DNA of 64,000 nt from Marinobacter sp. GTDB taxonomy: Bacteria; Pseudomonadota; Gammaproteobacteria; Pseudomonadales; Oleiphilaceae. Both the position numbers and the translations under genes were made by a program. Positions 45,241 through 59,703 of this stretch are shown here, piece after piece; position 1 is the first letter of the stretch, and the number at the start of each line of letters is the position of its first letter. The notes under the pieces are model-generated. The model was not told where the DNA came from. It was given only the letters and a program-made list of their open reading frames with translations, and did not search any database. The stretch covers positions 14,114 through 78,113 of the forward strand of contig JAVJZJ010000172.1 of NCBI GenBank assembly GCA_040223075.1, read 5' to 3'.

Positions 45241-45302
45241 GTCGATAACGGCCACAATCACGTCACGGATGTACCTTGTAAAGATCAGGAGCCCAGCCGC
45301 AA

Positions 45303-46616
45303 ATGCCACCACACACGCCCCACGCCCAGTCCCCGGGCGCGCAGGAAAACAAACGTGCGCTCTGGTCCTGGGCTTTTTACGATTGGGCCAACAGCGCCTT
45401 CTTTACCATCATCCTCACCTTTGTCTTTGCTCAGTATTTCAGTGTGTCGGTGATGCAGGACGAGGTCGCCGGCACCAACGCCTGGGGCAACATCGTGGGC
45501 ATTTCCGGGGTCTTTATCGCGGTCCTGGCGCCGATTCTCGGGGCCATTGCGGACCAGTCAGGGCGTCGCAAACCCTGGTTCATCAGCTTTACCCTGCTGT
45601 GCGTGTTTTCGTCTGCCATGCTGTGGACCGTAACACCAGATCAGGACCAGTTCTGGAACGCCGCGCTGTGGGTGGGGCTGGGCACCCTGGGCGCCGAGTT
45701 TGCGTTTATTTTCTACAACTCCATGCTGCCGGATCTGGCCAGTCAGGAACGCACGGGGCGCTGGTCCGGTTGGGCCTGGGGGCTGGGATACGTAGGCGGT
45801 GTTACAAGCCTGGTGGTCGCGTTGTATGGCTTTATCGAGACCGACGCCAATCTCTTCAACCTGGACCGGGACAAAGCCGAGCACGTTCGCGCCACCTTTG
45901 TGCTGGTGGCGGTCTGGTACATGGTGTTCGCATTGCCGGCGTTTATCTTCGTTCCAGACCGGCCGTCCACCGGCCTGAACCTGGCGGCCGCTACCCGAGC
46001 CGGGTTCAGGCAGCTGAAGGAATCCATCGCCCACGTTCGCCAGTACAAGGACATTGTGCGCTTTCTGATCGCCCGCATGCTGTACACCGATGGGCTGGCC
46101 ACCATATTCACGTTCGGGGGCGTGTACGCTGCCGGCACCTTCAACATGAACCCGACCGAAGTCCTGCAGTTCGCCATCGCGCTGAACGTGACGGCAGGGC
46201 TTGGTGCCCTCGGGTTTTCCTGGATTGACGACGCCCTTGGCGGCCGTAACACCATCCTGCTGGCGTTGGTTGGACTGGGCAGCAGTGCGCTGGCCATCCT
46301 GCTGGTGGACGGTGCCACCGCGTTCTGGATATGGGGCATGGTTCTGGGCATTTTCGTGGGCCCACTGCAATCCGCCAGCCGTTCCCATCTGGCCCGAGTC
46401 GCCCCACCTCACCTTCAGACCCAGATGTTTGGCCTGTTCGCTTTTTCCGGCAAGGCAACGGCGTTCGCCGGCCCCCTGTTGGTCGGCTCAGTCACAGCCA
46501 TCACTGACAGTCAGCGCTGGGGCATGAGCACTATCCTGGTGTTCCTGCTGGTCGGTTTCCTGCTGATGCTGACAGTACCTGCAACCGAGGCCAAAGAGAT
46601 CGAGGAAACCGCCTAA
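45303..46616 (+). CDS. MFS transporter (UMF1-like)
   Basis: 437-aa ORF with 12 predicted TM helices and an N-terminus ALWSWAFYDWANSAFFTIILTFVF typical of UMF1-family MFS proteins. Confidence 0.8.
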   Translation: MPPHTPHAQSPGAQENKRALWSWAFYDWANSAFFTIILTFVFAQYFSVSVMQDEVAGTNAWGNIVGISGVFIAVLAPILGAIADQSGRRKPWFISFTLLCVFSSAMLWTVTPDQDQFWNAALWVGLGTLGAEFAFIFYNSMLPDLASQERTGRWSGWAWGLGYVGGVTSLVVALYGFIETDANLFNLDRDKAEHVRATFVLVAVWYMVFALPAFIFVPDRPSTGLNLAAATRAGFRQLKESIAHVRQYKDIVRFLIARMLYTDGLATIFTFGGVYAAGTFNMNPTEVLQFAIALNVTAGLGALGFSWIDDALGGRNTILLALVGLGSSALAILLVDGATAFWIWGMVLGIFVGPLQSASRSHLARVAPPHLQTQMFGLFAFSGKATAFAGPLLVGSVTAITDSQRWGMSTILVFLLVGFLLMLTVPATEAKEIEETA

Positions 46617-48505
46617 CGCCCGCCGCTTTCCGGCGGAGCCCACAGCGGCACCTCCTCTCGGCTGGGGGGCTGCCAGTCTTGCTTCATCACATCGCTGAGG
46701 GTGTCTTCCAGCTTCATGAACAATTCCCCGTAACGGGGACTGAAGCTGATTCCCGACTCGATATCTTTCCAGGCCTCGCGCAACTCGGCCTCATGGGCTT
46801 TCTCGTTGTTCACAAAGGCCCAGGTCATTTGGCGGGCCCGCAAGGGATGCACACCAAACGCGGTCAGCGCCTGACCGCCCAGTTCCAGGGCAGAGTGGTA
46901 GGTTTCGCTGACCACGTCATCGGCGCCGGCGTCTCGCAGATCGTACCCATGCCCCCGATCAAAGGCCCGCGCCAAAATCCAGACACCCGGGAAATGTTGC
47001 TTGACGTGGTGCACCAGGGCCACCGCCCGCTCGCGATCATCAATGGCGACCACCAGCAGACGGGCATTGGCAATACCGGCGGTCTCCAGAAGATCCATCC
47101 GGCTGGCGTCGCCAAAATAGCTCTTGATGTTGATTCGACGCAGATTCTCAATCTGGTCCAACGCCAGATCCAGGGCGACAATCGGAATATTGTTGGCCCG
47201 CAGCAGACGGCAGACAATCTGTCCGAACCGCCCTACTCCGGCCACAATCACTGGCGCCTGATCTTCGATGGTATCTGCTTCCCGCTGCTCATTACGGGCT
47301 TCGCGGTATCGCGGCAAGATCAGGCGGTCATAGACGATGAACAGCAACGGCGTGAGGAACATGGACAGCGCCACCACCAGCGACAGGATCTGGGCAATAT
47401 CCGTAGGAATCACGCGGTTCTGCAGACTGTAGGTCAGCAACACAAACCCGAACTCACCGGCCTGGGCCAGGCCCAGAGTAAACAGCCAGCCATCGCGGCC
47501 ACGCAGGCCAAACAACTGCGCCAGCAGCAGCAACACCGCCGCCTTGACCACGATCACCAACAACCCCAACGACAGCACCGTGCCCCACTGCGCCGACAAC
47601 ACATCGAAATTGATGCCAGCACCGACGGTGATAAAGAACAGACCAAGCAGCAGGCCTTTGAACGGCTCAATGTTGGCCTCGAGCTCATGGCGAAATTCAC
47701 TGTTTGCCAACACCACGCCTGCCAGGAAAGCACCAAGAGCAGGTGACAGGTTCACCACACTCATCAATGCGGCAATGCCAATCACCAGCATCAGCGCCAT
47801 GGCGGTAAACACCTCCCGCATGCCGGACTGCACCACATAGCGGAACAGCGGCCGGCTCAGGTAGTGGCCGCCGATAATCACGGCTGCCACCGCACCAATC
47901 ACTACCAGCCCATGGGCCCAGCCGGGCAAATCCGCCACCAGGTTGAAGCTAGCATGATGATCTGCATCCACCGACCCGGTCGCCGCCATACCCGACACCA
48001 CCAGCAACGGAATGACGGCAAGCATGGGGATAACCGCTATGTCCTGGAACAACAACACCGAAAAAGCGCCGCGGCCACCCTCAGTCTTGCTCAGACCTTT
48101 CTCGTTCAGGGTTTGCAGAACAATGGCCGTGGATGAGAGGGAGAAGATCAAGCCAACGGTTACTGCGGTCTGCCAGGGCAGCCCCAGCCACCAGGCGATT
48201 GCCGTACCGGCCGCGGAGGTCAGCACCACCTGCAGGCCACCGAGGCCCAGCAAACGGACCCGCATGGCCCACAGGGATTTCGGGTCCAATTCCATGCCTA
48301 CCAGGAACAACATCATCACCACGCCAAACTCGGCGAAGTGCTGGATCGTGGCAGTCTCCTGACCCACCAGCCCGGTCACCGGCCCGATCACCACCCCGGC
48401 CACCAGATACCCGAGCACCGACCCGAGCCCCAGGCGCTTGGCCAACGGTACCGCGACGACCGCCGCCAGCAGGTAGATAAACGCCTGGATAAAGTATTCC
48501 GTCAT
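46613..48505 (-). CDS. Monovalent cation:proton antiporter-2 (KefB/KefC-type) with C-terminal RCK/TrkA-N domain
   Basis: 630-aa ORF. It has an N-terminal Na_H_exchanger membrane domain and a Rossmann motif VIVAGVGRFGQIVCRLL in the C-terminal domain. Its stop overlaps the convergent MFS stop by 4 nt. Confidence 0.85.
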   Translation of the reverse strand: MTEYFIQAFIYLLAAVVAVPLAKRLGLGSVLGYLVAGVVIGPVTGLVGQETATIQHFAEFGVVMMLFLVGMELDPKSLWAMRVRLLGLGGLQVVLTSAAGTAIAWWLGLPWQTAVTVGLIFSLSSTAIVLQTLNEKGLSKTEGGRGAFSVLLFQDIAVIPMLAVIPLLVVSGMAATGSVDADHHASFNLVADLPGWAHGLVVIGAVAAVIIGGHYLSRPLFRYVVQSGMREVFTAMALMLVIGIAALMSVVNLSPALGAFLAGVVLANSEFRHELEANIEPFKGLLLGLFFITVGAGINFDVLSAQWGTVLSLGLLVIVVKAAVLLLLAQLFGLRGRDGWLFTLGLAQAGEFGFVLLTYSLQNRVIPTDIAQILSLVVALSMFLTPLLFIVYDRLILPRYREARNEQREADTIEDQAPVIVAGVGRFGQIVCRLLRANNIPIVALDLALDQIENLRRINIKSYFGDASRMDLLETAGIANARLLVVAIDDRERAVALVHHVKQHFPGVWILARAFDRGHGYDLRDAGADDVVSETYHSALELGGQALTAFGVHPLRARQMTWAFVNNEKAHEAELREAWKDIESGISFSPRYGELFMKLEDTLSDVMKQDWQPPSREEVPLWAPPESGGR

Positions 48506-48568
48506 GAGCTGTTCCGTTTGATCTGTTGGGAAAGGCCTGCCTGCACGCGTGCCTATCTTTCGTGCCCG

Positions 48569-49675
48569 TCAGATTAGCGAAGGATCAAACTTTCGGAAAC
48601 CGTTCTTTCCGGAATTCTTGACTGAATACATGGCCTTGTCAGCCTGGGCCATCAATGAACAGACATCGTCGGCGGTACCAGGAAAGGTTGCAATGCCGAT
48701 GCTGCATCCAACGGTAACCGTCCCGTCACTCAGTTTTACAGGCTCGCGGGCCTCCGCGATAATACGCTCCGCAAGAGGCTCAAAGGGGTAACTGCCGGAA
48801 CCTTCTGTTGTACCGTCCACCAGAAAGGCAAATTCATCACCGCCCACTCTCGCCACCATCTCACCTGCTCGCTGGATCTGCCAGAATCGATTTGAGAGCA
48901 CCTGCAGCAAATGGTCACCGGTCATATGTCCGTATTGATCGTTCACGTCCTTGAAGCCGTCAATATCGACCAGGTAAAGCACAACCTCACCGTCCTGGCT
49001 TCGGCGTTGCAGAGCAATAGCATCCTCGAGGCTTTCTTCAAATGCGGCTCTGTTGTAGAGCCCCGTCAATGAATCGTGGGAAGCCTTGTAAAGGATTTCA
49101 GCTTCCTTGCGGCGGTCATCGGTGATATCGCGGGCAATCGCAAACAGTTTGGTTGTGGCATGAGTAATGGCGGGGCAGTACCAGGCAATCCAGCGCCAGC
49201 TTCCGTCCTTGGCAAGATAACGATTTTCAAAACTGATACTGTCGCGGCCAGACCCCAAGCCCTCAAGCTCCCGGGCGGTTTTGTCCACATCGTCCGGATG
49301 GACAAAATCCACGAAAGGACGCGACAGCAACTCTTCTTTTGAATAACCGAGTGTATTGGCGAACGCCGAATTCACGCGCTTGAAGTAACCGTCCAATCCG
49401 GCAATGCACAGCATCTGGACGGAATGCTCGAAGAACCACTCCCATTCCTGTAGGCTTCGGTGGTAATTCTCCAGCTCATTGGACAACCGCTTTTTGCTGG
49501 CCAGCAGGTCTTCACGTTCCCGTTCCAACACCCTGAGTTTGCTCTCAAGGCGCTCCAATTGCTCTGCCTTTTCACGGAGCCTGACGATAGTCTCGTTATC
49601 TGGATCGCCCGCTTTACCCATAAGCGTCAGCTCCATACCGCAACTTTTACCCGCCAGGGAATCATCGCCCGGCAC
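48569..49675 (-). CDS. Coiled-coil-PAS-GGDEF diguanylate cyclase
   Basis: 368-aa ORF with an N-terminal coiled coil (LREKAEQLERLESKLRVLEREREDLL) and a PAS segment (FKRVNSAFANTLGYSKEELL). The GGDEF domain reads GEMVARVGGDEFAFLV. The I-site position reads RAGE, so it is not RxxD. Confidence 0.85.
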   Translation of the reverse strand: MPGDDSLAGKSCGMELTLMGKAGDPDNETIVRLREKAEQLERLESKLRVLEREREDLLASKKRLSNELENYHRSLQEWEWFFEHSVQMLCIAGLDGYFKRVNSAFANTLGYSKEELLSRPFVDFVHPDDVDKTARELEGLGSGRDSISFENRYLAKDGSWRWIAWYCPAITHATTKLFAIARDITDDRRKEAEILYKASHDSLTGLYNRAAFEESLEDAIALQRRSQDGEVVLYLVDIDGFKDVNDQYGHMTGDHLLQVLSNRFWQIQRAGEMVARVGGDEFAFLVDGTTEGSGSYPFEPLAERIIAEAREPVKLSDGTVTVGCSIGIATFPGTADDVCSLMAQADKAMYSVKNSGKNGFRKFDPSLI

Positions 49676-49762
49676 GAATACGTAAAAGTTCTTACTTTCA
49701 ACATAGCACCCACAGCTGGAACTGTGAACAAATGTTCAGATATTAGGTAGGGGAACTACGGG

Positions 49763-50290
49763 TTATTGACAGGTACCATGGCGATCGGACCGCCAGGAGT
49801 TCATCTTCTCTAGCCGACAGAACATACGCTTTACATGGCTGCCGTCCCAGAAGAGCTGGCGACACGTTGGGCATGACCACACTTTTTGCGGGTTCGGTCT
49901 GGGTGCACCCGGGTAGAAATTCCGAAGCTCCCACTGACTGGCCGTATCAAGCGCTGTATTACAGTTCTTACAGCGGCTGAAAGGAGCAAAGCACCAATCC
50001 AGATCCAGCCTCAGAGTCAGTTCTCGCAGTCGTGCCTGCTCAACCCGTTCCGCCAGGTGGATGACATAGAAAGGGGCGCTCGAAAATTCCAGAAGATCCG
50101 CATCGGCTGTGATCAACCAGCGCTGTTCCGCGCGAGCCTGGTTCAGTATCTGCCGGTCCGGTGAACCCTGAACGGGCAAGGATGCATCGTAACCGGCGAC
50201 GCGCAGCCACTGAGCCAGGCTGTTCAACATCTCGTCGCACAGAAAGCGTAGTGGTACCAGCGAACACAGACTGCCTTCAATCACTTTCAT
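49763..50290 (-). CDS. Mut7-C RNase domain (DUF82, PIN-like) protein with zinc ribbon
   Basis: 175-aa ORF. RFLCDEMLNSLAQWLRVAGYD matches the Mut7-C N-terminal motif. It has C-terminal CxxC pairs (CKNCN ... CPTCRQLFWDGSH). Confidence 0.75.
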   Translation of the reverse strand: MKVIEGSLCSLVPLRFLCDEMLNSLAQWLRVAGYDASLPVQGSPDRQILNQARAEQRWLITADADLLEFSSAPFYVIHLAERVEQARLRELTLRLDLDWCFAPFSRCKNCNTALDTASQWELRNFYPGAPRPNPQKVWSCPTCRQLFWDGSHVKRMFCRLEKMNSWRSDRHGTCQ

Positions 50291-50349
50291 GGAACCCCGA
50301 CCGGAATCTGCTCTGCCCCCTTCAGCTTAGCTGTTTTCAGCTGGCATCT

Positions 50350-51240
50350 TCAGCCTTTAGGTACATACTGCCGCACATCCCAGCAGAAATAGCGCTTCAG
50401 GACACTGTTCGCCTCGTGTTCTTTCTGACGCCAGCCGTAGACTTTGGGCTTGGCAGTCTCAATGGCGAGGGTGCCGAATACCAGCCAGTCATAGATCGCC
50501 AGGGTGGAGGTCACATTCTTGGCTGAATTGGGGCCACGGGCGTGGTGATGATGGTGTTGAGTCGGGAACACCAGGATATGAGCCAGCGCCCACATGGTCT
50601 TGCGCACCCAGGCCCAGCGGTGGTTGTGGAAATACAGGTCGTAATTCCAGTTGACGTGGGTATGGGCCGCCCAAAGACCTTTGAATGCAGTGGCAATCAG
50701 AAAAACATCCACCAGCCCCAGGTAAAGGCACAACAACTGGAAAGTGTAGTTAGGCATGATCAGCCACCAGGCCCAGCCGTTGACGAACGTCTGGGTCACC
50801 GAAAGTTGCCCCTTGTTATCCAGGCCACCAGACATATGGTGCGGGCGATGGCTCATCTTGTAGAACGCCTGGACCCACTGGAGAACGCGGTTCTTGGGAC
50901 GGCGCCGGTGAGCAAACAGGTGGAAACTGCCGTGGATAAACTCCTCCACGCAGAAAAAGACAATCAGCGTCGGCCAGAAATACGCCTGCTCAAGCCAGGC
51001 CAGTGAACCGGCGCTGCCCGGAATCAGCGCCGAAAGCACGAGGGTCAGGACCAGCAGCACCATAGGACGCTGAACCGCCACCATCATGAAGGTGGCAAGA
51101 AACGCCATCCGCCAGTCCTGCTTGTTTTTGCGCCCCTCACGGGTGCGACCACTGACCACCTCCCAAAGGGCGGTCAGGATGATAAAAGACGTTACCAGCA
51201 TCGTCAGTTTTTGATCGTCCATTTTTGTTCTCCCAGACAA
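50350..51240 (-). CDS. Fatty acid hydroxylase / sterol-desaturase superfamily membrane protein
   Basis: 296-aa polytopic ORF with histidine boxes HLFAHRRRP, SHRPHHMS and PTQHHHHHARG. Confidence 0.7.
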   Translation of the reverse strand: MSGRTKMDDQKLTMLVTSFIILTALWEVVSGRTREGRKNKQDWRMAFLATFMMVAVQRPMVLLVLTLVLSALIPGSAGSLAWLEQAYFWPTLIVFFCVEEFIHGSFHLFAHRRRPKNRVLQWVQAFYKMSHRPHHMSGGLDNKGQLSVTQTFVNGWAWWLIMPNYTFQLLCLYLGLVDVFLIATAFKGLWAAHTHVNWNYDLYFHNHRWAWVRKTMWALAHILVFPTQHHHHHARGPNSAKNVTSTLAIYDWLVFGTLAIETAKPKVYGWRQKEHEANSVLKRYFCWDVRQYVPKG

Positions 51241-51316
51241 TAGGTGCAGGTGTGTCTTTTGACCTTAATGGCGCCCGGTATATTTTCCTATTCAATATTT
51301 GGTATAAGTAATATCC

Positions 51317-52216
51317 ATGAAGCTGAATTTACGAAGTGTCGACCTCAACCTGCTGCCGGTATTCGATGCCATCATGGAGGCCGGCCAGCTCTCCCGTGCT
51401 GCCGAGACCCTGGGTATGAGCCAGCCGGCGATCAGCGCCGCCCTGCAGCGCCTACGCCATACCCTGGGCGACCCGCTGTTTGTGCGCACGCGTCAGGGCA
51501 TGTTGCCCACCCCCCGAGCGCGGGAGCTGCACAGCAGCCTCAACCAGCAACTGGCCGCCATGCGTGACACTCTGGACCCGGCCAATCGCTTCGTGCCCGC
51601 CACCAGTCAGCGCCACTTCCGGGTGCTCAGCAATGACTACTTCGAGATGGTGGTATTACCCCCGTTGCTGGCTCACCTACAGAGCGAAGCACCGAACGTG
51701 GTGGTGGAAGTGGCATTGGCCGGCGACGACGTGCCGCAAACACTCTGCAACGCACAGGCCGATCTCGCCGTCGACGCCTTCGGTACCGAAAACGACCTGC
51801 TCCACCGACAAGTGCTGATGTGGGAACAGCTGGCTGTGGTGGCACGACAGGGCCATCCCACTCTGCAGGGCAACTGCTCTAAACGTCAGTTCCTGGATGC
51901 CGAGCACGTGGTACTGCCAGAGCGAAACCGCCGTCTGCCGCTGGATCAGATCCTCAATGAGCCGGGCTGGCAACGCCGTACCGGCGCGCGGGTTACACAG
52001 TTCGCCAGCATGCTCGCCACTTGCAGCCGGTCCGACATGATTGCCACCGTGCCGGAGCGCATGGCGCAACAATACGCCCACGCGCTGGGGCTTCAGATCC
52101 TGCCTTTTCCCGCCAATATTCCACCGCTACCCGTCTACCTGATATGGGCACCCGTGCTGGACAACGACCCTGCCCACCAATGGTTTCGTCAACGCTTGAT
52201 AGAGTGTGTCGCCTGA
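51317..52216 (+). CDS. LysR-family transcriptional regulator
   Basis: 299-aa ORF. The N-terminal wHTH reads VDLNLLPVFDAIMEAGQLSRAAETLGMSQPAISAALQRLR. It is divergent from the desaturase-like gene. Confidence 0.9.
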   Translation: MKLNLRSVDLNLLPVFDAIMEAGQLSRAAETLGMSQPAISAALQRLRHTLGDPLFVRTRQGMLPTPRARELHSSLNQQLAAMRDTLDPANRFVPATSQRHFRVLSNDYFEMVVLPPLLAHLQSEAPNVVVEVALAGDDVPQTLCNAQADLAVDAFGTENDLLHRQVLMWEQLAVVARQGHPTLQGNCSKRQFLDAEHVVLPERNRRLPLDQILNEPGWQRRTGARVTQFASMLATCSRSDMIATVPERMAQQYAHALGLQILPFPANIPPLPVYLIWAPVLDNDPAHQWFRQRLIECVA

Positions 52217-52303
52217 TTGCTTCAGGTCACTTTCAACAGCACCGAATCTGAGCCATAGTTAATGTATGAAATCTCAAACCACGCGAGGCGAGGAGGACAG
52301 ATC

Positions 52304-52480
52304 ATGAGTGAAGACGAGCACAAAAAGCTTCACCCCATACTCAACGAGGTCACCAAGACCTACGTGGATCTCTACACCAATCGTCCCAACGAGAAAAACC
52401 GCGAGAAGCTGATCAAGCTGGAGAAGCTTTTGCACGAGCAGTTGGAGAAGATCGAGGCGGCGACCAAGGAGAATGACTGA
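52304..52480 (+). CDS. Small charged helical hypothetical protein (58 aa)
   Basis: The ATG at 52304 is preceded by a strong AGGAGG 7 nt upstream. The product is MSEDEHKKLHPILNEVTKTYVDLYTNRPNEKNREKLIKLEKLLHEQLEKIEAATKEND. The track start at 52262 has no ribosome-binding site. Confidence 0.4.
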   Translation: MSEDEHKKLHPILNEVTKTYVDLYTNRPNEKNREKLIKLEKLLHEQLEKIEAATKEND

Positions 52481-52494
52481 CTGTCGTTGAAGGT

Positions 52495-52536
52495 GGCCAG
52501 GAACGGAGGCATGTATTCCGCCAGCCGTTCCTGGCC
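52495..52536. terminator. Inverted repeat between convergent genes (possible bidirectional terminator)
   Basis: 12-bp perfect arms GGCCAGGAACGG / CCGTTCCTGGCC (52495-52506 and 52525-52536) with an 18-nt loop. No clear T-tract. Confidence 0.4.
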
Positions 52537-52546
52537 CCGCTAAGAG

Positions 52547-53146
52547 TCAGGCCGCCAGCAACTCGGCAATCCTGTCATTTGCCTCGGCGAGGCTCTTGTC
52601 GCGGGTCTCGTCACCGATGTTCAGCCCTTCGGCATGAACGATTTCCACATCGGTGATACCCACGAACCCCAGGTACTGACGCACCACTGCGGTCTGGGCA
52701 TGATCATCACCGTAAAAGCCACCTCGAGTGATAAAGACGTAGGCCTTCTTACCCTGCAGCAGTCCCTTCGGACCCTGCTCGGTATAGCGGAAAGTGACCC
52801 CGGCCCGGGCAACGTAATCCATCCAGGCTTTGAGCACGGAAGGGATACCGAAGTTGTACATGGGAACGCCCAATACCAGCACATCCGCTTCCTGAACCTC
52901 GGCAATCTGCTTGTCGGCAAATGCCACCATCGCGTGTTGCTCTTCCGTGCGCTCAGCCTCGGGCGTCATCAAGGCCTGGAGCCGCGCCTGATCCAGGTGG
53001 GGAATATTCTCTGTCGCCAGGTCACGGCTGATCACGTTGGCCTCTTCCTGCTGTGCCTGCCAGCGCTCCACAAACTGCTGTGCCAACAGTGATGACTGGC
53101 CGGCATCCTCAAACAGACTGCTCTGGATTTTCAATAATGTTGTCAT
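52547..53146 (-). CDS. azoR: FMN-dependent NADH-azoreductase (AcpD/AzoR)
   Basis: The start at 53146 (MTTLLKIQSSLF) follows AGGAGA. It has the typical AzoR blocks (ADVLVLGVPMYNFGIPSVLKAWMD, RYTEQGPKGLL). Confidence 0.85.
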   Translation of the reverse strand: MTTLLKIQSSLFEDAGQSSLLAQQFVERWQAQQEEANVISRDLATENIPHLDQARLQALMTPEAERTEEQHAMVAFADKQIAEVQEADVLVLGVPMYNFGIPSVLKAWMDYVARAGVTFRYTEQGPKGLLQGKKAYVFITRGGFYGDDHAQTAVVRQYLGFVGITDVEIVHAEGLNIGDETRDKSLAEANDRIAELLAA

Positions 53147-53263
53147 CGTATCTCTCCTGCCTCTCTTCATAATTTGGAACGGCGATGGGAGAATTAAAAC
53201 ATTGATTAGTTAGATTCTATAGTTCAAAATTTAGCATAAATCTATCTAATAATTAGATGCTTA

Positions 53264-54178
53264 ATGGAGCGCCTCCCCTCTCCCCATATCAGCCTGGAAC
53301 AGTGGCGTTGCCTGGTGGCCGTCGTGGAAGCCGGTGGCTATGCCCAGGCTGCAGAAAAGCTGTACAAGAGCCAGTCCTCAGTCACCTATGCCGTGCAAAA
53401 ACTGGAACGCCTGCTGGACATCAAAGCTTTCCAGATGGCAGGTCGTCGCGCCATTCTGACCCCGGCGGGCGACATGCTCTACCGTCGGGCCCGACAATTA
53501 CTGGAGGATTCAGCCAACCTGGAAAGGGCGGCAGGCAAGGTGTCGGCCGGCTGGGAAAGCGAAATCAATATTGCAGTGGAGGCCCTTTATCCCACCTGGC
53601 TGCTACTGGAGAGTTTCGAACGATTTGGCAAGGACAGTCCCCATACCCGCATCAACCTGTACGAGACGATCTTCCAGGGCGGTCCGGAATTGCTGCTGTC
53701 CGGTCAGGTGGAGCTCGCCATTCTGCCCGAGGTACCAGCGGGCTCCAATGGCAAAGCCTTGCCCCACACCTCCCGCATTATCCCGGTCGCCCATGCCGAC
53801 CACCCTCTGCATCAGCTGGGACGCCCGCTGACCCTGAACGACTTCCGCAAGCATCGGCACCTGGTGGTCCGTGATACCTCACAGCAACGGGATAGCCGCA
53901 CCTCTACCGTGGACGTCGCGCAACGCTGGACCGTCTCCAGTATGGCCACCTCCATCGGGGCTGTGTGCCGCGGTTATGGGTTTGCCTGGCTGCCGGAAGA
54001 CAAAATCCGGCATGAACTGACGTCCGGCCTGCTGAAGCCCTTGCCTATGGGCGATGGCGATGCGCGCTTTGCGCAGCTCTATCTGATATTTCACGCCCCC
54101 GACCAGATCGGTCCCGGCGTCAGACGCCTGGCGCAAATAATCGAAGAGGATATGCTGCAGGCGGGCCTCAACCTTTAG
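53264..54178 (+). CDS. LysR-family transcriptional regulator
   Basis: 304-aa ORF. The wHTH reads LEQWRCLVAVVEAGGYAQAAEKLYKSQSSVTYAVQKLE. It is divergent from azoR. Confidence 0.9.
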   Translation: MERLPSPHISLEQWRCLVAVVEAGGYAQAAEKLYKSQSSVTYAVQKLERLLDIKAFQMAGRRAILTPAGDMLYRRARQLLEDSANLERAAGKVSAGWESEINIAVEALYPTWLLLESFERFGKDSPHTRINLYETIFQGGPELLLSGQVELAILPEVPAGSNGKALPHTSRIIPVAHADHPLHQLGRPLTLNDFRKHRHLVVRDTSQQRDSRTSTVDVAQRWTVSSMATSIGAVCRGYGFAWLPEDKIRHELTSGLLKPLPMGDGDARFAQLYLIFHAPDQIGPGVRRLAQIIEEDMLQAGLNL

Positions 54179-54700
54179 CGTCGCCCCTGGCATCTTGAGC
54201 ACTCTCGCAGCCATTGCTCCATACCCTCGCCCAGATGGGACTGCGGATAGGACCAGTGGTCTTTCTCCATGCCGATTTCCTCTTCCCACGCTCTGATACA
54301 CCGCCTTGGTGAACCAGGTCATTTCCGCAAAGGCCTGGGGCGTCAGGGGAAAGGTATCGTAATCCCGGTGATTCAGCAGCATGACGGCACGATTCTCCAC
54401 ATCAAACTGCGCCTGCAGGCCCTCCCTGGCAACCTGACGGTCACGCCTGAAAACCGACTCGGTGCCGTCTCCCCCCCACGGCGAGGAAATAGACGTCCGT
54501 CTCACCGGGCCGCTCAGGTGCCAGGCTTTCGATCTGGTTGTTCAGGCGTTGGCGGTCCTCGGTGAGGATCTCTTCGGTGAGGGGCGCTGGTGATTCTTCC
54601 GAAGCTCCCTCATAACGGCTGTCTTCGTCCTCACGCACACCCTGCCCCGCCATCAGGCCTTTCCGGAACTCGCCTTCGTAACGCCAGCGCCTCTGCTACT
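54175..54700 (-). pseudogene. Remnant of a C13 (legumain/caspase-like) peptidase-family gene: N-terminally truncated and frameshifted at a homopolymer
   Basis: Track fragments 54441..54653 and 53879..54505 fuse into ...ERPGETDVYFLAVGG|DGTESVFRRDRQVAREGLQAQFDVENRAVMLLNHRDYDTFPLTPQAF... if the C7 run at 54471-54477 (G7 on the coding strand) is one base shorter. An in-frame TAG lies upstream of the first Met (...ALK*QRRWRYEGEFRKGLMAGQG). The downstream part dissolves into the LysR 3' end. The family call rests on the remembered pattern D[LV]YF[VL]G[FA]GGD..[QE].VF...V. Confidence 0.4.
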
Positions 54701-54714
54701 TCAGGGCGGCAATC

Positions 54715-55209
54715 CTATTTGTTTTGTTTCGAACCTATGAGACGCGAGAATTTAGGCACCACATACAGTACGACCCAGGCCAGAAGGGTGCACAGAATGG
54801 CCGTTTGCTCGCGTCCCAGACCGACTGCGATGCCTATCGCGGCAGTGAACCAGATGCCCGCCGCCGTGGTGAGCCCGGATGCACTTTGCTCGTCACTGCG
54901 GTTGATGATCGTTCCCGCGCACAGAAAGCCGATGCCGGTAATTACGCCCTGAATAACACGGCTCATTTCCACGTCAGAGATGCCCGCTTGTTGAGGAATC
55001 AGGATAAACAAAGCCGCCCCCATGCAAACCAGCATATGAGTGCGCACACCGGCGGCCTTGCCTCGTTGCTCCCGTTCAAGCCCCAGCACGCCTCCCAGCA
55101 GCACAGCCAGCAGGAGCCTGATCAAAACAATAAGCATTTCGACCAGGTCGGTGAGACCTGAAAACTCGGAAACAACGGTATTGCCGATGAGCGTTATTTC
55201 GTCGTTCAT
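54715..55209 (-). CDS. mgtC: MgtC/SapB family membrane protein
   Basis: The start at 55209 (MNDEITLIG) was chosen. The segment LLLAVLLGGVLGLEREQRGKAAGVRTHMLVCMGAALF is the MgtC signature region. Confidence 0.8.
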   Translation of the reverse strand: MNDEITLIGNTVVSEFSGLTDLVEMLIVLIRLLLAVLLGGVLGLEREQRGKAAGVRTHMLVCMGAALFILIPQQAGISDVEMSRVIQGVITGIGFLCAGTIINRSDEQSASGLTTAAGIWFTAAIGIAVGLGREQTAILCTLLAWVVLYVVPKFSRLIGSKQNK

Positions 55210-55445
55210 AGACGTCTCTTTAGTGTGGAAAAGGCAGGCACCCATCCCCTCCCCTGGAAACGCCTGGCTTAATAAAGCCAGAACAGCGCCTTCAAGGAAG
55301 GCTTATCTAAGTTTAGACCAAGCTAGTGCGTTGTCTGGCTGTGTGATTTTAGTCCACTACGAATAGCTTGGCTTCCTGCTCAGTTGAGGACCGGTGATCA
55401 GCCAGATAGCCTGGGGTGATGCATGTCTCTTGACGTGGGAAGTCA

Positions 55446-55517
55446 TATCAACGCCTTGGCTTTGCGGCGTGCCGAAGCGCCAGCGTAGGTGCGTCCGACA
55501 ACAGCCTTTGGTTAAAT
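55446..55517 (-). repeat. attC-like site (72 bp) closing the ccdAB cassette
   Basis: On the minus strand it reads ATTTAAC (R'', 55517->55511) ... GTTGATA (55452->55446). The L-stem pairs GGCTTTGCGGCG with GGCT[G]TTG[T]CGG[A]CG, with three extra bases on the R''/L'' arm. There is an unpaired 5/4-nt spacer next to the R boxes and a 22-nt loop. Confidence 0.6.
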
Positions 55518-55519
55518 GC

Positions 55520-55548
55520 TTGAATGCGCACCACCATGCGCATAAAAT
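55520..55548 (+). promoter_or_regulatory. Candidate sigma70 promoter and operator for ccdAB
   Basis: TTGAAT, a 17-nt spacer, then TAAAAT, ending 36 nt upstream of the ccdA ATG. The spacer contains two copies of the self-palindromic hexamer TGCGCA six nt apart (TGCGCAccaccaTGCGCA). Confidence 0.5.
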
Positions 55549-55583
55549 GAGGCCATGCATTAAATAGCCACTTGGAGACTCGA

Positions 55584-55829
55584 ATGGCCGAACTCTACAA
55601 CCCATCTGCACCAAAAAAAGCGGCAAACCTCTCAGTCAATAGCGATCTACTGCGTAAGACGCGTGAACTGAACATTAACCTGTCTGCTACCCTGGAGCGA
55701 GCACTGAAAGAAGAACTCTCCAAACGCGAGGCAGAACAGTGGATTGAAGAAAACCGCGCTGCGATAAAAGGTTACAACGATTTTGTCGAACAACATGGAT
55801 GCTTCGGCGACGAATTCAGGGAATTTTGA
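55584..55829 (+). CDS. ccdA: Type II antitoxin CcdA
   Basis: The ATG at 55584 follows GGAG. The product is MAELYNPSAPKKAANLSVNSDLLRKTRELNINLSATLERALKEELSKREAEQWIEENRAAIKGYNDFVEQHGCFGDEFREF, which matches the CcdA family pattern. Its stop overlaps the ccdB start (TGATG). Confidence 0.85.
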   Translation: MAELYNPSAPKKAANLSVNSDLLRKTRELNINLSATLERALKEELSKREAEQWIEENRAAIKGYNDFVEQHGCFGDEFREF

Positions 55830-56146
55830 TGGCACAGTTCGATGTATACCCCAACCCAAGCAAAACCAGCAAAGCGCACTACCCTTACCTTGTCGATATT
55901 CAGAACAGCCTGCTGAGCGAACTGGCAACTCGCATCGTCATCCCGCTGGGAAAACGCTCCGCATTTGGTGGTGAAGCGATGCGGGGAGTCACGCCGGAAA
56001 TCAGCTTTGCAGACCAAGAGCTTCTTCTTTTAACCCCGCAAATTTCCTCTGTTTCTGAAAAGCATCTCAAAAACCCGATTGGCTCTCTATCACATTTCAG
56101 AGACCAGATTGTTGGAGCCTTGGACATGGCTATCACCGGCATTTAA
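55829..56146 (+). CDS. ccdB: Type II toxin CcdB (gyrase poison family)
   Basis: 105 aa. MAQFDVYPNPSKTSKAHYPYLVDIQNSLLSELATRIVIPL... is a typical CcdB N-terminus (QFxVY.N......PY.vdvQ), and the protein ends ...ALDMAITGI. Confidence 0.85.
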   Translation: MAQFDVYPNPSKTSKAHYPYLVDIQNSLLSELATRIVIPLGKRSAFGGEAMRGVTPEISFADQELLLLTPQISSVSEKHLKNPIGSLSHFRDQIVGALDMAITGI

Positions 56147-56212
56147 CGCATTGCTCACCGGTAAATTGCGAGCGAAGCGAGTAATTTATCCGCGTGCAGC
56201 AGATTGTTATGC
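56141..56212 (-). repeat. attC-like site (72 bp) closing the DUF418 cassette
   Basis: On the minus strand it reads GCATAAC (R'', 56212->56206) ... G|TTAAAT (R', 56147->56141; GTTAAAT is a perfect GTTRRRY). The L-stem pairs ATTGCTCACCGGTAAATT with AATTTA[T]CCG[C]GTG[C]AGCA[G]AT, with the extra bases again on the R'' side. The loop is 15 nt. R' overlaps the ccdB stop codon. Confidence 0.65.
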
Positions 56213-56217
56213 CACGA

Positions 56218-57348
56218 TCAACTTCCACTAATTTTCCGCAGAACCGGCTCTAATGGGCCTCGCCCGAAGATTTTGGTACAAACACCCACTAACATCATAG
56301 CAATAAGCGCGATTATCAAAGAAACTGGAATCAATGCCGCATGACCGAGTGAGTGAAAGAACCCCAAACCATAGGCACCGAATACAAACCCAGTCAGCAC
56401 CCCTTGAGCAACATAGGATGACAGAGAATTTTGCCCGGCAAGTACCAGCAAATTTGGCACTTTTATCATTCTTGAAAGACGAATGAAGATATATAGGTAA
56501 ACCAGAGAAAGAGCAGGTGCACCGATGGCTATTAAAGAAAACCCAAGTAAATATAATATTTCGTAAGTTTCCGGAAAAATGCCGCCTACAACAGCAGCGT
56601 ACAAAGCGTTCAAAGGCAAAGCAATTATTATTAGAAGTGGCAGGCGCTGTTGAATCAGATTAAACCCTTCGCTGTTTTTAGAGAAAAAATCTGTTTTAGC
56701 TGCGGCCAAACCCACCGCAAAAGCACTAAGGGCTAACGGTCCTTGGAGGAGAACTAAAAATCCGAGAGTTATAGGCCAGTCCGAAAATCTTGCCTGGGTT
56801 GCCTCAAGAAAACCGCCTCCGAGGTTTGCGTTTCCAATCGCGGCAAATGAATTAGCTTTGTCAGTCATCACGGCATCAATGAGCACCGCAATTATTGTGA
56901 GAAAAACCATACTCAATGGCAGCATCCAAGCCGCGAACTTGATTAATTTCCGAGGAGGAAAATCCTTTATCAACCAAAGAAATAATCCCAACAGCGCATA
57001 TAAGACTAAAATATCACCACTAAACACCAATATTGCATGAAAGACGCCTATAATAGCCAGCCCGAGCATTCTTCGGAAATAACGCTTTGAAAACGACTGT
57101 CCTTTCGACTCTGCAGACCTTGATTGAATGGCCATACCCCAACCAAAAATAAAGGAAAACAGGATGAAAAATTTTAACTGAAGAAAACACTCCACCAGAA
57201 ATGCCGCAGATTTGTCGTAAAAACTATCAGGGGGAATAAACACAGATTCTACTGGCAACGCCATAAATGGCACATTTACAACACATATACCAACCAGTGC
57301 AGCCATTCTGATTATGTCAACTTCATTACTTCGTGGCAGAGTGTTCAT
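56218..57348 (-). CDS. DUF418 (YeiB-like) polytopic membrane protein, cassette-borne
   Basis: 376-aa AT-rich ORF. Its N-terminus DIIRMAALVGICVVNVPFMA and overall pattern are typical of DUF418/YeiB proteins. Confidence 0.8.
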   Translation of the reverse strand: MNTLPRSNEVDIIRMAALVGICVVNVPFMALPVESVFIPPDSFYDKSAAFLVECFLQLKFFILFSFIFGWGMAIQSRSAESKGQSFSKRYFRRMLGLAIIGVFHAILVFSGDILVLYALLGLFLWLIKDFPPRKLIKFAAWMLPLSMVFLTIIAVLIDAVMTDKANSFAAIGNANLGGGFLEATQARFSDWPITLGFLVLLQGPLALSAFAVGLAAAKTDFFSKNSEGFNLIQQRLPLLIIIALPLNALYAAVVGGIFPETYEILYLLGFSLIAIGAPALSLVYLYIFIRLSRMIKVPNLLVLAGQNSLSSYVAQGVLTGFVFGAYGLGFFHSLGHAALIPVSLIIALIAMMLVGVCTKIFGRGPLEPVLRKISGS

Positions 57349-57424
57349 GATATGGTTTCTCTTCAGACATAGCGCTTTGGTTTAGCGGCGGCCCGCCAGG
57401 GGCGTCCGGTGGACTGGGGGAAGT

Positions 57425-57453
57425 GCATAACGTACTGGAATAACTGGTTATGT
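57425..57453 (-). repeat. Vestigial 29-bp attC (R boxes only) between the glyoxalase and DUF418 cassettes
   Basis: On the minus strand it reads ACATAAC-CAGTTATTCCAGTAC-G|TTATGC. ACATAAC overlaps the glyoxalase stop and is the exact complement of GTTATGT, which opens that cassette at 57835. TTATGC is the exact complement partner of the GCATAAC R'' at 56212. The L boxes and loop are missing. Confidence 0.35.
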
Positions 57454-57813
57454 GGTTGTGCGCTCATTGAACAAAATTCTGTTTGAAAACGGATCTACCA
57501 CTTCGAATATCCTATCACCCCAAGGTGCCGTCGTGATCTCTGGCAGAGAATACGTATAACCTCGTGAACAAATTTCGCCGTGCAGGGCCTCAAGCTCATC
57601 AGTATTCACGAACGTTTTGGAACCGGGAGTACAATCTCCAGAGTGTTCACTGAGGTGGAAGACCAGTTCATCTCTAGAGACTTGCATATAGATAGGGAAG
57701 CCCGGCTCAAAGCGATGTTCCCAATCGAGCGACATACCGAGGAAGTCCAAGTAGAACTCTTTGGCCTTAGACTCATCGAAGATTCGGATGATTGTAATGG
57801 CTTGAAATTGCAT
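57448..57813 (-). CDS. VOC / glyoxalase-bleomycin-resistance family protein, cassette-borne
   Basis: The start at 57813 (MQFQAITIIRIFDESKAKEFYLDFLGMSLDWEH...) was chosen. The 121-aa product follows the single-domain VOC pattern (...VFHLSEHSGD...APWGDRIFEVVDPFSNRILF). Confidence 0.8.
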   Translation of the reverse strand: MQFQAITIIRIFDESKAKEFYLDFLGMSLDWEHRFEPGFPIYMQVSRDELVFHLSEHSGDCTPGSKTFVNTDELEALHGEICSRGYTYSLPEITTAPWGDRIFEVVDPFSNRILFNERTTT

Positions 57814-57828
57814 CCATGCTCTCCTTCC

Positions 57829-57912
57829 ACATAACGCTGCCAACACGCGCAGTTTTGTAGTGGAGGCGTAGCCGCAACGGAAAAGCTGTCGCTGTGCTTG
57901 GCCTGGTTATGC
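57829..57912 (-). repeat. attC-like site (84 bp) closing the HEPN cassette
   Basis: On the minus strand it reads GCATAAC (R'', 57912->57906, 3 nt after the HEPN stop) ... G|TTATGT (57835->57829). The L-stem pairs GCCAACACGCGCAG with CTG[T]CGC[T]GTG[C]TTGGC, with three extra bases on the R'' side. There is a 3-nt unpaired spacer next to the R boxes and a 33-nt loop. Confidence 0.65.
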
Positions 57913-57915
57913 CCA

Positions 57916-58523
57916 TTACCTGATTCTGCTATGAGGTACACCGATACTATCCGCGACTTTTCTTAATGTGACTTGCTCAAGACGCTCGATAAGATCATTA
58001 GCATGTTTAAAGCTGTCTTCTCGCCACAACTCTATTTTTAATACCATGGGATCTGACTGGTCGTCGATAGGCTGAAGCTGAAGATCATCAATCAGTTTTT
58101 GCTCCCTTCGCTCTCCACCGAACGGGCGATAAAGCATATAGCCTCTACCAACGGAAACATGAGCATGTGCAACCATATTTCTGAGGTGGTAAAGCTCCTC
58201 AACGTCTCTTTTCTCATCATCTGCAAGAATATCCGAGAAAGCTTCCTTGATTTATTCTTTACTGAACCGAACTGCTTTTCCCAGTAGGAAACCCTGATGC
58301 TATGGAACTCTGGAGGAACTCGAGTCGGGTTCTTTACGAAGTCGGAAATCAAATTTGTGTTGTTCTTAAATATAATTAGATCCGACATCTGGCCTTGCAG
58401 CCATGCTGTGAACATAAAAATGATACCAGCATTCACCATGTTCTTTTCAGGTGTTTCCATATGCACCCCGTAAGGCATAACATTTGTATATGAGTCTGAA
58501 TGATCACTTTTCCACTGACTCAT
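57916..58523 (-). pseudogene. HEPN-domain protein gene with a -1/+1 frameshift (cassette-borne)
   Basis: Track ORFs 58092..58523 and 57916..58176 join as ...YWEKQFGSVKNK|IKEAFSDILADDEKRDVEELYHLRNMVAHAHVSVGRG... if one A is added to the A3 run at 58251-58253 (coding strand). The downstream frame is closed by a TAA immediately 5' of IKEAF. RNMVAH is an Rx4H HEPN active-site motif. Confidence 0.6.
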
Positions 58524-58761
58524 ATCTCAATTCAACGATTACCCAAAACTAGGCAGAAAATCCCGTCAGGTCAATAAGTTCTGACTGCTTTCCTGACCGC
58601 CGTCCCAAACAAAAATGATCACAAAGACGACTATCCACTTTTTCAGCCACCTCGCCATCCCATTGACCTAGAATGGGAAATTACGGGCTTCAACAAACTC
58701 ACTCAGTTCATGGTCGAAATGATCATTTTTCCAATTGCCACCCATCGGTACTGCGCATAAG

Positions 58762-58777
58762 CTGTATTAATATACAG
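58762..58777. promoter_or_regulatory. LexA (SOS) box upstream of the intI remnant
   Basis: CTGTATTAATATACAG matches CTGT-N8-ACAG. It is embedded in a longer palindrome AAGCTGTAT-TAAT-ATACAGCTT and ends 20 nt upstream of the intI ATG. Confidence 0.65.
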
Positions 58778-58797
58778 CTTCAAAAGGATTTGTACTG

Positions 58798-58990
58798 ATG
58801 GATGACATTCCAGTCCCACTGCCGGCTATCCCGACCCGGTTTATGGATCGATTCCGCGCATTTATTCGCGCCCGGCACCTGGCTTATCGCACTGAAAAAA
58901 CCTACTGCAACTGGGTAAGAGAATTTATCCGGTTTCATGACAAGCGCCATCCAGAATCCATGGGGTCGGAAGAGGTCAATGCCTGGATGC
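58798..58990 (+). pseudogene. intI: Integron integrase, N-terminal ~62 codons only (delta-intI)
   Basis: MDDIPVPLPAIPTRFMDRFRAFIRARHLAYRTEKTYCNWVREFIRFHDKRHPESMGSEEVNAW aligns with IntI1 as I remember it (...[51 protein letters not shown]). Similarity stops at about 58985, a few nt from the bluB stop (58993). The ORF then runs 9 unrelated codons to a stop. Confidence 0.8.
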
Positions 58991-58992
58991 CT

Positions 58993-59703
58993 TCAGTTCC
59001 GTTCCTGTTCTTTTAATGCTGCCTTCAACTCGAGGTCTTCCTGCGGCTGCCCCCAGCCGTTGCCATGCACCAGCTCCTCGATTGGCAGCCGTGACCGCCA
59101 GCCCTTGGCTTGCAGTTCCGGCTGGTCGAGGAATTCGCTGACATACCCCAGGCACAGGTAGGCCAGCGGGTACACCTGTTCCGGCAGGTTTAGCGTGTTG
59201 GCCAGCTTCTGCTGGTCCAGAATGCTGACCCAACCCACGCCGATGCCTTCGGCGCGGGCAGCCAGCCACAGGTTCTGGACCGCCAGGCAGGTGCTGAACA
59301 GGTCGGTTTCGACGATGGTGTTGCGGCCCAGCACGTGGGTGCCACCGCGGCTGCGGTCGCAGGTGATGCAGAGGTTGATGGGGCTTTCGAGGATGCCCTG
59401 GAGTTTCAGGTTCTTGTAGCGGGTATTGCGCTCGCCGCTGTAGTTGTCGGCGGCCTTGCGGTTTTCTTCCTCGAAGATGTCGAGGACGGACTGGCGCACC
59501 TCGATGCTGTCGATAACGATAAAGTCCCACGGCTGCATGAAGCCCACGGACGGGGCGTGGTGCGCGGCGGTGAGCAGGCGCGCCAGGACGTCCGACGGGA
59601 TCGGGTCGGGGAGGAACTGGGAGCGGACATCCCGCCGTTCGTAGATGGCGCGGTAGAGGCCCTGGCGCTCTTCGTCGCTGAAGGGGCGGTTGTGGTCGGT
59701 CAT
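58993..59703 (-). CDS. bluB: 5,6-dimethylbenzimidazole synthase (BluB, nitroreductase fold)
   Basis: 236-aa ORF. YERRDVRSQFLPDPIPSDVLARLLTAAHHAPSVGFMQPWDFIVI is the BluB signature region. Confidence 0.85.
   Translation of the reverse strand: MTDHNRPFSDEERQGLYRAIYERRDVRSQFLPDPIPSDVLARLLTAAHHAPSVGFMQPWDFIVIDSIEVRQSVLDIFEEENRKAADNYSGERNTRYKNLKLQGILESPINLCITCDRSRGGTHVLGRNTIVETDLFSTCLAVQNLWLAARAEGIGVGWVSILDQQKLANTLNLPEQVYPLAYLCLGYVSEFLDQPELQAKGWRSRLPIEELVHGNGWGQPQEDLELKAALKEQERN

Follow-up and report, generated by a model that had tools for sequence, protein, structure and literature searches.

A former chromosomal integron of Marinobacter at the 3' end of bluB, with an integrase remnant and four gene cassettes

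Cassette arrays without an integrase, known as clusters of attC sites lacking integron-integrases (CALIN), have been proposed to originate from complete integrons by integrase loss (Cury et al. 2016, PMC4889954). In the folded bottom strand of the attC sites that bound such cassettes, the R''-L'' arm carries 2-3 extrahelical bases, the central spacer is unpaired and the terminal structure varies (Bouvier et al. 2009, PMC2727003). Here, we analyze an array of this kind in a 64-kb stretch of DNA (hereafter the window, to which all coordinates refer), where an integron-like element lies next to bluB at positions 55411-58992. As in the CALIN elements defined by IntegronFinder, two or more attC sites lie within 4 kb and a functional integrase gene (intI) is absent. 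The element also resembles the integrons of Marinobacter lipolyticus SM19 and M. profundi PWS21 in its insertion point, the position of its LexA box, its attI and the family of its attC sites, unlike which it has no full 327-amino acid (aa) IntI, a shorter array and entirely different cassettes.

We consider it very probable that 55411-58992 is a sedentary chromosomal integron of Marinobacter, inserted at the 3' end of bluB within a cobalamin gene cluster, that has decayed in place. The host is taken to be a Marinobacter since its BluB protein is 96% identical to the M. lipolyticus SM19 homologue and 91% identical to that of M. profundi. The locus is a former integron rather than a functional one, because only 63 codons of intI remain and the IntI-specific C-terminal insertion is deleted, while the orthologue in M. 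lipolyticus is full-length. Elements of this kind are already well known, and the example is real but ordinary.

Integrase remnant, attI and attC sites

A first-pass annotation of the sequence had reported a 62-codon fragment of an IntI-type integrase, and we find 63 codons (Table 1). The fragment matches the integron-integrase models of NCBIfam (NF011946, 1.5e-13; TIGR02249, 3e-11), far under their full-length cutoffs, while no Xer or phage-integrase NCBIfam model matches it at E<=0.01, so that in the comparison with non-integron recombinases it scores against integron integrases only. Residues 1-63/64 of the full-length M. lipolyticus IntI share 97-98% identity with it, and the range is 94-98% when the M. 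lipolyticus and M. profundi genes are taken together. For comparison with related loci we used 80 bluB loci, 1.47 Mb in total (locus numbers beginning with L are our own). Intact 327-aa intI genes convergent with bluB are present in L001, L002, L007 and L008; the first two, M. lipolyticus SM19 (L001, NZ_KE007325) and M. profundi PWS21 (L002, NZ_KZ319370), carry the gene at the same bluB site as the window, with 6 bp separating the intI and bluB stop codons. The SM19 IntI scores 408.6 bits on TIGR02249 (cutoff 265) and far under the respective cutoffs on the XerC and XerD models. When aligned to the sister genes at the DNA level (alignment A1), the window is collinear with intI through codon 63 (...EEVNAW), after which it jumps to the final intI bases (GATGCCT) and then the bluB stop codon. 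The internal deletion amounts to ~790 bp, with the junction AATGCCTGG/ATGCCT and CTGG on both sides, and it bears out the annotated loss of intI up to the 3' end of bluB; the very end of intI may survive as bases 58987-58992. No further part of IntI, including the C-terminal region or a second IntI, is encoded anywhere in the window.

Upstream of the remnant lies a perfect LexA-box-like palindrome, matched nowhere else in the 64 kb and expected 0 times in shuffled sequence, whose CTGT-N8-ACAG core is kept in L001, L002 and L068. From the known SOS control of intI, we take this palindrome to be an SOS/LexA operator. The attI region spans the palindrome, and its homology to four sister genomes stops at ...ACAAATGTTA (G/TTATGC, 58481/58480), each genome then being different. 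With the end of homology recorded as ...AAATGTTA, the first cassettes start with TTATGC, TTAGAA, TTAGAA and TTAGCC; past ...ATACAAATGTTA (alignment A6), the window reads TGCC..., L001 GAATT..., L002 GAAGG... and L068 GCCAAGG.... Since sister homology ends at this point and genome-specific cassettes follow, the crossover would lie between G58481 and T58480 of the minus strand, and the break fits an attI x cassette junction at G/TT.

Three repeats of the form (G/A)TGATCATT were also seen within attI (58499-58507, 58614-58622 and 58718-58726, minus strand), spaced ~105-115 bp apart. Two of them are exact copies and the sole exact matches in 64 kb, and all three are kept in L001, L002 and L068. 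They could be accessory repeats bound by IntI or by a regulator.

To avoid circularity in the detection of attC sites, we harvested attC-like sites from the arrays that follow intI in sister loci, and no window sequence was included in the training sets. A fold-based scanner, which was too permissive alone (32 candidates in the window), served only for this harvesting. Since MAFFT alone misaligned the attC stems, nine sites from sister arrays with their loops trimmed were used to bootstrap a covariance model (R1), and a second model (R2) was rebuilt on the 45 attC matches of the related bluB loci, left untrimmed. R1 was run over both strands of the full 64 kb, reporting matches up to E=10. Rfam contains no attC family, and a permissive-threshold search of 54-60 kb against it matched just a chance snoRNA (E=0.97).

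Exactly three R1 matches were returned in the window, all on the plus strand, at the attC sites of cassettes 1 (51.1 bits, E=4.5e-12), 3 (52.3 bits, E=2e-12) and 4 (41.9 bits, E=2e-9). R2 scored the same three sites at 74.4, 61.1 and 44.6 bits, respectively, and gave one extra match in the window, at the attC of cassette 2. As a positive control, R2 also recognized the attC sites of a class 1 integron on a Klebsiella pneumoniae plasmid (estX 57.5, aadA2 47.1 and psp 43.2 bits). The plus strand is the bottom strand of this array, whose reading direction is along the minus strand, and at each of the three sites it folds into a long stem interrupted by three bulges of one base, every one of them on the 3' arm, with unpaired spacers of 3-5 nt between the stem and the terminal 7-nt xxxxAAC / GTTxxxx boxes. 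R''-L'' is the arm that carries the bulges and the one nearer to intI, and a G is present after the AAC of R' at all three sites. All three conform to the R''/R' box rule (RYYYAAC ... GTTRRRY, with AAC paired to GTT), which the fourth site, with R' GCTATGT, fails. The folds agree with the attC geometry described in PMC2727003. Folding and models together thus uphold the earlier description of three palindromes of 72, 72 and 84 bp with R boxes, spacers and a bulged stem whose longer arm is intI-proximal.

Over the 80 bluB loci R1 gave 45 matches, all on the array strand and all within the arrays of seven loci with an intI or its remnant, except for three in L074 and one in L067. Because the matches cluster in cassette arrays and lie in one orientation, and because the class 1 control is recognized, the palindromes are attC sites and not a dispersed family of repetitive extragenic palindromes (REP). 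Sites near-identical to the attC of cassette 1 occur in L007 and L008. The array was annotated as AT-rich, and its measured GC content is 45.9% (55446-58481) versus 58.0% in the left flank and 63.5% in the right flank.

Many attC loops in the Marinobacter array family carry a GCGAAGC- or GCGCAGC-like mini-hairpin (e.g. GAGCGAAGCGAG and GGAGGCGAAGCC), which is seen in the window at 56170-56182 and 57864-57876 as well as in sister attC sites, and which suggests a conserved terminal structure instead of a free loop. The attC of cassette 3 shares 88-89% identity over 65-67 nt with the estX attC (L107 2497-2567) of the class 1 integron intI1-estX-psp-aadA2-cmlA1, found on >600 Enterobacterales plasmids, and ~81% identity with the catB2 attC. 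This likeness of sequence may hint that clinical cassettes of the estX/catB2 type came from Marinobacter-like chromosomal integrons.

Cassette boundaries and alternative readings

The first-pass annotation had described its cassette boundaries as obeying a rule of complementarity between the start of each cassette and the R'' box of its own attC. We examined this rule across 46 cassettes of related arrays by comparing each cassette start, at its four variable positions, with three R'' boxes. All four positions matched the cassette's own R'' in 30 of the 46 cassettes, compared with 5 of 46 for the R'' of the same attC and 1 of 34 for the next-but-one R'', which served as controls. The rule is real and discriminating. 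Cassettes 1, 2 and 4 of the window follow it exactly, and cassette 3 matches at 3/4 variable positions, as in L090. The annotated pairs TTATGT at 57834 with ACATAAC at 57453 and TTAAAT at 56146 with ATTTAAC at 55517 are exact when their coordinates are read back, and the pair TTATGC / GCATAAC of cassette 1, absent from the earlier list, fits as well. The third annotated pair, TTATGC at 57430 with GCATAAC at 56212, did not hold up, as this GTTATGC lies inside an arm of the eroded attC of the VOC cassette and its complementarity is coincidental. A GTTRRRY box that obeys the rule can arise by chance in an attC arm, and boundaries need homologous cassettes from other arrays.

The homologous cassettes place the junction between the VOC and DUF418 cassettes elsewhere. 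The closest VOC cassettes, in L097 and L098, end in an intact 105-nt attC, ACATAAC-CAGTCATTCCAGTTCGTTACGG...GGCCGCCGCTGAATAATGGC-GTTATGC, and are followed by two different cassettes. Window 57367-57453 is homologous to this attC along its full length (alignment A7), with the inner stem lost and the loop ~17 nt shorter, and the window GTTATGC (57431..57425) has as its counterpart a GTTACGG internal to the 5' arm of the L097/L098 site. On the other side of the junction, the metagenomic contig L090 has a DUF418 cassette with 91% identity whose start, GTTATGTCCGAAGAGAACCCATATCATG, is like the window's (G)CTATGTCTGAAGAGAAACCATATCATG; at 57373 the window has GCTATGTCTGAAGAGAAACCATATCATG. R2 fits a single full-length site to the 87 nt (19.9 bits, E ~0.009) in which the inner stem is missing and the pairing of the R boxes is broken, and R1 at default gives no match there. 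The intact L097 attC folds at -22.8 kcal/mol (z=-3.1) versus -14.0 kcal/mol (z=-1.2) for the window copy, which shows no R-box pairing. From these alignments, we place the true VOC/DUF418 boundary at the mutated R' (57373..57367), ~58 bp from where it had been put before. The VOC and DUF418 cassettes can probably no longer be separated. The DUF418 attC of L090 (1929-2000) likewise ends in GCTAGCT and not GTTRRRY, with the same GTT-to-GCT change, which may be a coincidence or a recurrent way of inactivating sites.

An alternative to this placement would make the junction a 29-bp minimal attC (ACATAAC-15 nt-GTTATGC, 57453..57425), so that the array has four exact R''/R' cassettes and the DUF418 cassette an 82-nt leader; DUF418 cassettes in other arrays would then be expected to start TTATGCACTTCCCCCAG. 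GTTATGC is present at 57431..57425, TTATGC is the exact complement of the DUF418 cassette R'' GCATAAC, and R1 with its filters off gives 9.0 bits (E=0.51) on 57425-57453 (a further weak R1 match, at 55281-55344 with 9.6 bits and E=0.34, was taken as noise). However, homology to the VOC attC sites of L097, L098 and L083 continues downstream of GTTATGC (TCCACCGGACG..., GGCCGCCGCT...), the 91%-identical L090 cassette begins GTTATGTC, equivalent to window 57373, R2 places a single full-length site across 57367-57453, and a 29-bp site would be without an L stem, all of which makes the minimal attC most improbable. Still harder to credit is the idea that the palindromes are REP- or terminator-like repeats unrelated to integrons, with a coincidental gene arrangement. 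It draws on their being imperfect, GC-rich and placed after genes, with modest individual fold z-scores (-0.8 to -2.1), but the window holds no more copies, those in the 1.47 Mb of relatives cluster in cassette arrays, mostly next to intI and in one orientation, and the same model recognizes canonical class 1 attC sites; the bulges are also strand-asymmetric as in attC sites, and cassette ends are conserved across unrelated arrays. The first-pass annotation had itself named a REP family, and a failure of attC models at the three sites, as possible refutations; both models match all three sites, and R1 has no other match in the 64 kb.

A different question is whether the array is frozen, as had been claimed, or is a satellite array whose cassettes are still being excised and reordered in trans by an intact IntI encoded elsewhere in the genome, which we regard as unlikely but worth keeping in mind. 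Three of the four attC sites are structurally intact and score like attC sites beside a live intI, about half of integrase-less arrays occur in genomes with an IntI elsewhere (Cury et al. 2016, PMC4889954), and Marinobacter integrons at other loci exist, e.g. in M. lutaoensis (L105). In contrast, there is no second IntI in the 64 kb, and the eroded attC, the mutated R', the frameshifted first cassette and the truncated fifth cassette are signs of relaxed maintenance, so a frozen array seems a reasonable inference. Some observations do weigh against an integron that simply decayed in place. The evidence spans 64 kb only, and a second intact intI is possible elsewhere in the genome; the frameshift in cassette 1 and the deletion in intI rest on one assembly; and recombination activity, or its absence, is judged from sequence. 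A cassette promoter (Pc) was not detected either, as a consensus sigma-70 scan of the minus strand at 58481-58990 found nothing, its counts not exceeding the shuffled expectation, and a TTGACC-17-TAGTTT stretch conserved in alignment A6 fell under the scan threshold. In addition, the integrons of L004 and L106 lie beyond cobS, so that vertical decay alone is too simple a history for the locus, and the downstream flank from mgtC to cobS (45.2-55.4 kb) is not accounted for by an integron.

The original platform was canonical, with intI, a putative LexA-type operator and an attI of ~320 bp, and with cassettes that entered at the attI G/TT, oriented away from intI and read on the minus strand. A ~790-bp internal deletion at the CTGG microhomology stripped intI to its 63 N-terminal codons. 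The distal array was lost, leaving four cassettes and a 41-bp stub of a fifth, the attC of the VOC cassette eroded through the loss of its inner stem and the change of its R' from GTT to GCT, and the gene of the first cassette was frameshifted. Lacking a recombinase in cis, excision, shuffling and capture of cassettes would need IntI in trans, and the VOC and DUF418 cassettes would probably now form one fused unit. The ccdAB cassette may help keep the remaining array through post-segregational killing.

Cassette genes and related loci

The features of the locus are listed in Table 1. It has three strong attC sites and one weak site within 2.5 kb, and its VOC, DUF418 and HEPN-like genes are also found in unrelated arrays, within cassettes that have the same ends.

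Table 1. Features of the integron remnant and the adjoining bluB gene (window coordinates)
Feature	Positions	Strand	Details
Fifth-cassette stub	55411-55451	-	TTGATATGACTTCCCACGTCAAGAGACATGCATCACCCCAG; 38/41 bases match the L007 cassette start after attC 12908-12991
attC of cassette 4, 72 nt	55446-55517	-	R'' ATTTAAC, R' GTTGATA
Cassette 4, ccdA-ccdB	55452-56146	- (cassette), + (genes)	Starts TTAAAT, complement of own R'' ATTTAAC
ccdA	55572-55829	+	Pfam CcdA 1.4e-30, 105.9 bits, cutoff 22.4
ccdB	55829-56146	+	Pfam CcdB 4.4e-31, 107.6 bits, cutoff 28.6
attC of cassette 3, 72 nt	56141-56212	-	R'' GCATAAC, R' GTTAAAT
Cassette 3, DUF418/YeiB-like membrane protein	56147-57372	-	CDS 57348..56218; Pfam DUF418 6e-19; starts CTATGT, originally TTATGT
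Eroded attC of cassette 2, 87 nt	57367-57453	-	R'' ACATAAC intact; R' mutated to GCTATGT (57373..57367)
Cassette 2, VOC/Glyoxalase_7, bleomycin-resistance-like	57373-57834	-	CDS 57813..57448; Pfam Glyoxalase_7 1.9e-43
attC of cassette 1, 84 nt	57829-57912	-	R'' GCATAAC, R' GTTATGT; 3 extrahelical bases
Cassette 1, HEPN-like gene	57835-58480	-	CDS 58460..57916; starts TTATGC, complement of own R'' GCATAAC
attI region	58481-58797	-	76-85% identical to L001, L068, L004 and L002 over ~320 bp
LexA-box-like palindrome	58762-58777	.	CTGTATTAATATACAG (CTGTAT-N4-ATACAG); perfect; 20 bp upstream of intI ATG
intI remnant, 63 N-terminal codons	58798-58986	+	Pfam Phage_int_SAM_4 5.8e-17; NCBIfam integron-integrase matches
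bluB (5,6-dimethylbenzimidazole synthase)	58993-59703	-	TIGR02476 278 bits, cutoff 150; chromosomal gene abutting the intI remnant

In accordance with the earlier naming of the cassette genes, we recover VOC, DUF418 and ccdAB genes and a frameshift in the gene of cassette 1, whereas the HEPN label of that gene, at a sub-threshold score, is plausible but not established. The frameshift comes from the loss of one nucleotide of a TTC codon near 58250, as judged from a 96%-identical intact homologue (P0138). The repaired protein has 181 aa, and intact hypothetical homologues of 181-187 aa are up to 96% identical to it. Of the 44 homologues, 23 match HEPN_Swt1 at E<=0.01 (best 2.8e-6), with 18.9 bits for the window protein against a cutoff of 27.5, and R94, N95 and H99 of an RNxxxH motif, RNMVAH in the window, are invariant in the 44. 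The AlphaFold model is all-helical (pLDDT 94) and has no fold match in the PDB at E<1 by Foldseek; PADLOC and NCBIfam gave no match, and a sequence-profile search of the PDB only a weak one to patatin (E=0.008). A homologous HEPN-like cassette in M. lutaoensis likewise has the start GTTATGC and the R'' GCATAAC.

At its start the VOC cassette has TTATGT, complementary to its own R'' ACATAAC, and homologues of its protein (up to 93% identity) occur in cassette-like arrays of many taxa and metagenomes. In the ten arrays that were closely examined, the VOC cassette always starts GTTATGTG(T/G)AAGGAGAGCATGG and ends with R'' ACATAAC. The ccdAB genes are inverted relative to the array, with adjacent stop and start codons at 55829, and their cassette holds a promoter-like TTGAAT-17-TAAAAT (55520-55548). 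An inverted repeat, ATGCGC-N8-GCGCAT (55530-55549), overlaps the spacer of this promoter-like sequence upstream of ccdA and is, from its sequence and place, a plausible operator for CcdA/CcdB autoregulation. No CcdA or CcdB homologues were found in the 80 bluB loci searched, nor a homologous ccdAB cassette elsewhere. Beyond cassette 4, since the 41-nt homology to the L007 cassette start stops at ~55410, the array is truncated distally inside a fifth cassette.

Farther downstream, cobS lies 13.7 kb beyond bluB in the window versus 0.7-1.7 kb in integron-free Marinobacter. The ~10 kb at 45240-55410 (58% GC) contain MFS, kefB, PAS-GGDEF, Mut7-C, sterol-desaturase-like, two LysR, azoR and mgtC genes. 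We considered this region as a set of further degraded cassettes and rejected it, given its lack of attC matches, host-like GC content (58%) and mixed gene orientation.

Truncated IntI reading frames are found in several of the relatives, with lengths of 63 aa in the window, 73 in L106, 124 in L068, 149 in L004, 181 in L105 and 196 in L005, and another 73-aa N-terminal IntI fragment adjoins a VOC cassette in L099-L104 (its VOC protein named from a Halomonas genome). In the Marinobacter relatives these truncations are at different codons and appear independent. The array of M. lutaoensis (L105) is at another locus, after nrdAB and a 2-hydroxyacid dehydrogenase gene. In L106 (827-1906), L004 (7762-9192) and L068 (668-1711), the truncated intI is next to cobS on the far side from bluB, in the order array, attI, intI remnant and cobS, followed by the convergent bluB. 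Two or more configurations of the integron relative to the cob genes imply rearrangement or independent insertion.

Other arrangements were seen outside these loci. In Franzmannia qiaohouensis (L074 3974-7310), three attC matches of 31.9-38.7 bits lie upstream of bluB, and no IntI match was found in the 20-kb locus, which may be another integrase-less attC cluster near bluB in the Halomonadaceae. A metagenomic contig (L084 2720-4876) has a VOC cassette beside a 277-aa tyrosine recombinase that is 44% identical to IntI residues 72-325, in a small integron between a ferredoxin gene and mutS, an unrelated chromosomal site.

Comparison with known integrons

Unlike CALIN elements generally, the origin of this array can be directly demonstrated, as the attI and the N-terminal stub of the integrase remain and intact orthologous integrons exist. 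Pseudogenes of intI were previously sought with the IntI C-terminal profile (PMC4889954), and since the stub is without IntI_Cterm, the locus would count in that survey as a CALIN with no recognizable intI pseudogene. Stubs that are N-terminal only evade such searches, and their arrays are then scored as orphan attC clusters. The locus is of modest significance as a clean worked example: because an intact, ancestor-like state exists in sister species, each lesion can be named, from the deletion in intI, the eroded attC and the point mutation in its R' to the frameshift in the first cassette and the truncated distal end. We advance more tentatively, and as rather less likely than not to prove right, the broader notion that the stub, the fusion by attC erosion, the recurrent truncation and the estX source together capture the stepwise fixation of arrays as chromosomal genes. 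Were this true, some arrays classed as orphan would be integrons that decayed in place, attC erosion would fuse neighboring cassettes into multi-gene units, as with VOC and DUF418, and at least six independent intI truncations in Marinobacter-type integrons would hint at recurrent selection to silence the recombinase.

The decayed sedentary integrons of Xanthomonas and others (bioRxiv 10.1101/2025.06.18.660453) share with this locus a clade-fixed site, lineage-typical attC sites and recurrent integrase inactivation. The Vibrio superintegron likewise contains toxin-antitoxin cassettes, whereas the array in the window is small, with four cassettes, and belongs to another genus and a cob-cluster site. 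The role suggested for ccdAB in the array is drawn from what is generally known from work on Vibrio. Finally, class 1 integron attC sites are carried on plasmids and transposons together with IntI1, whereas the sites in the window are chromosomal and without an integrase; they have the same single-strand architecture, the same model recognizes the class 1 sites (43-57 bits), and the attC of cassette 3 is 89% identical to the estX attC over 65 nt.

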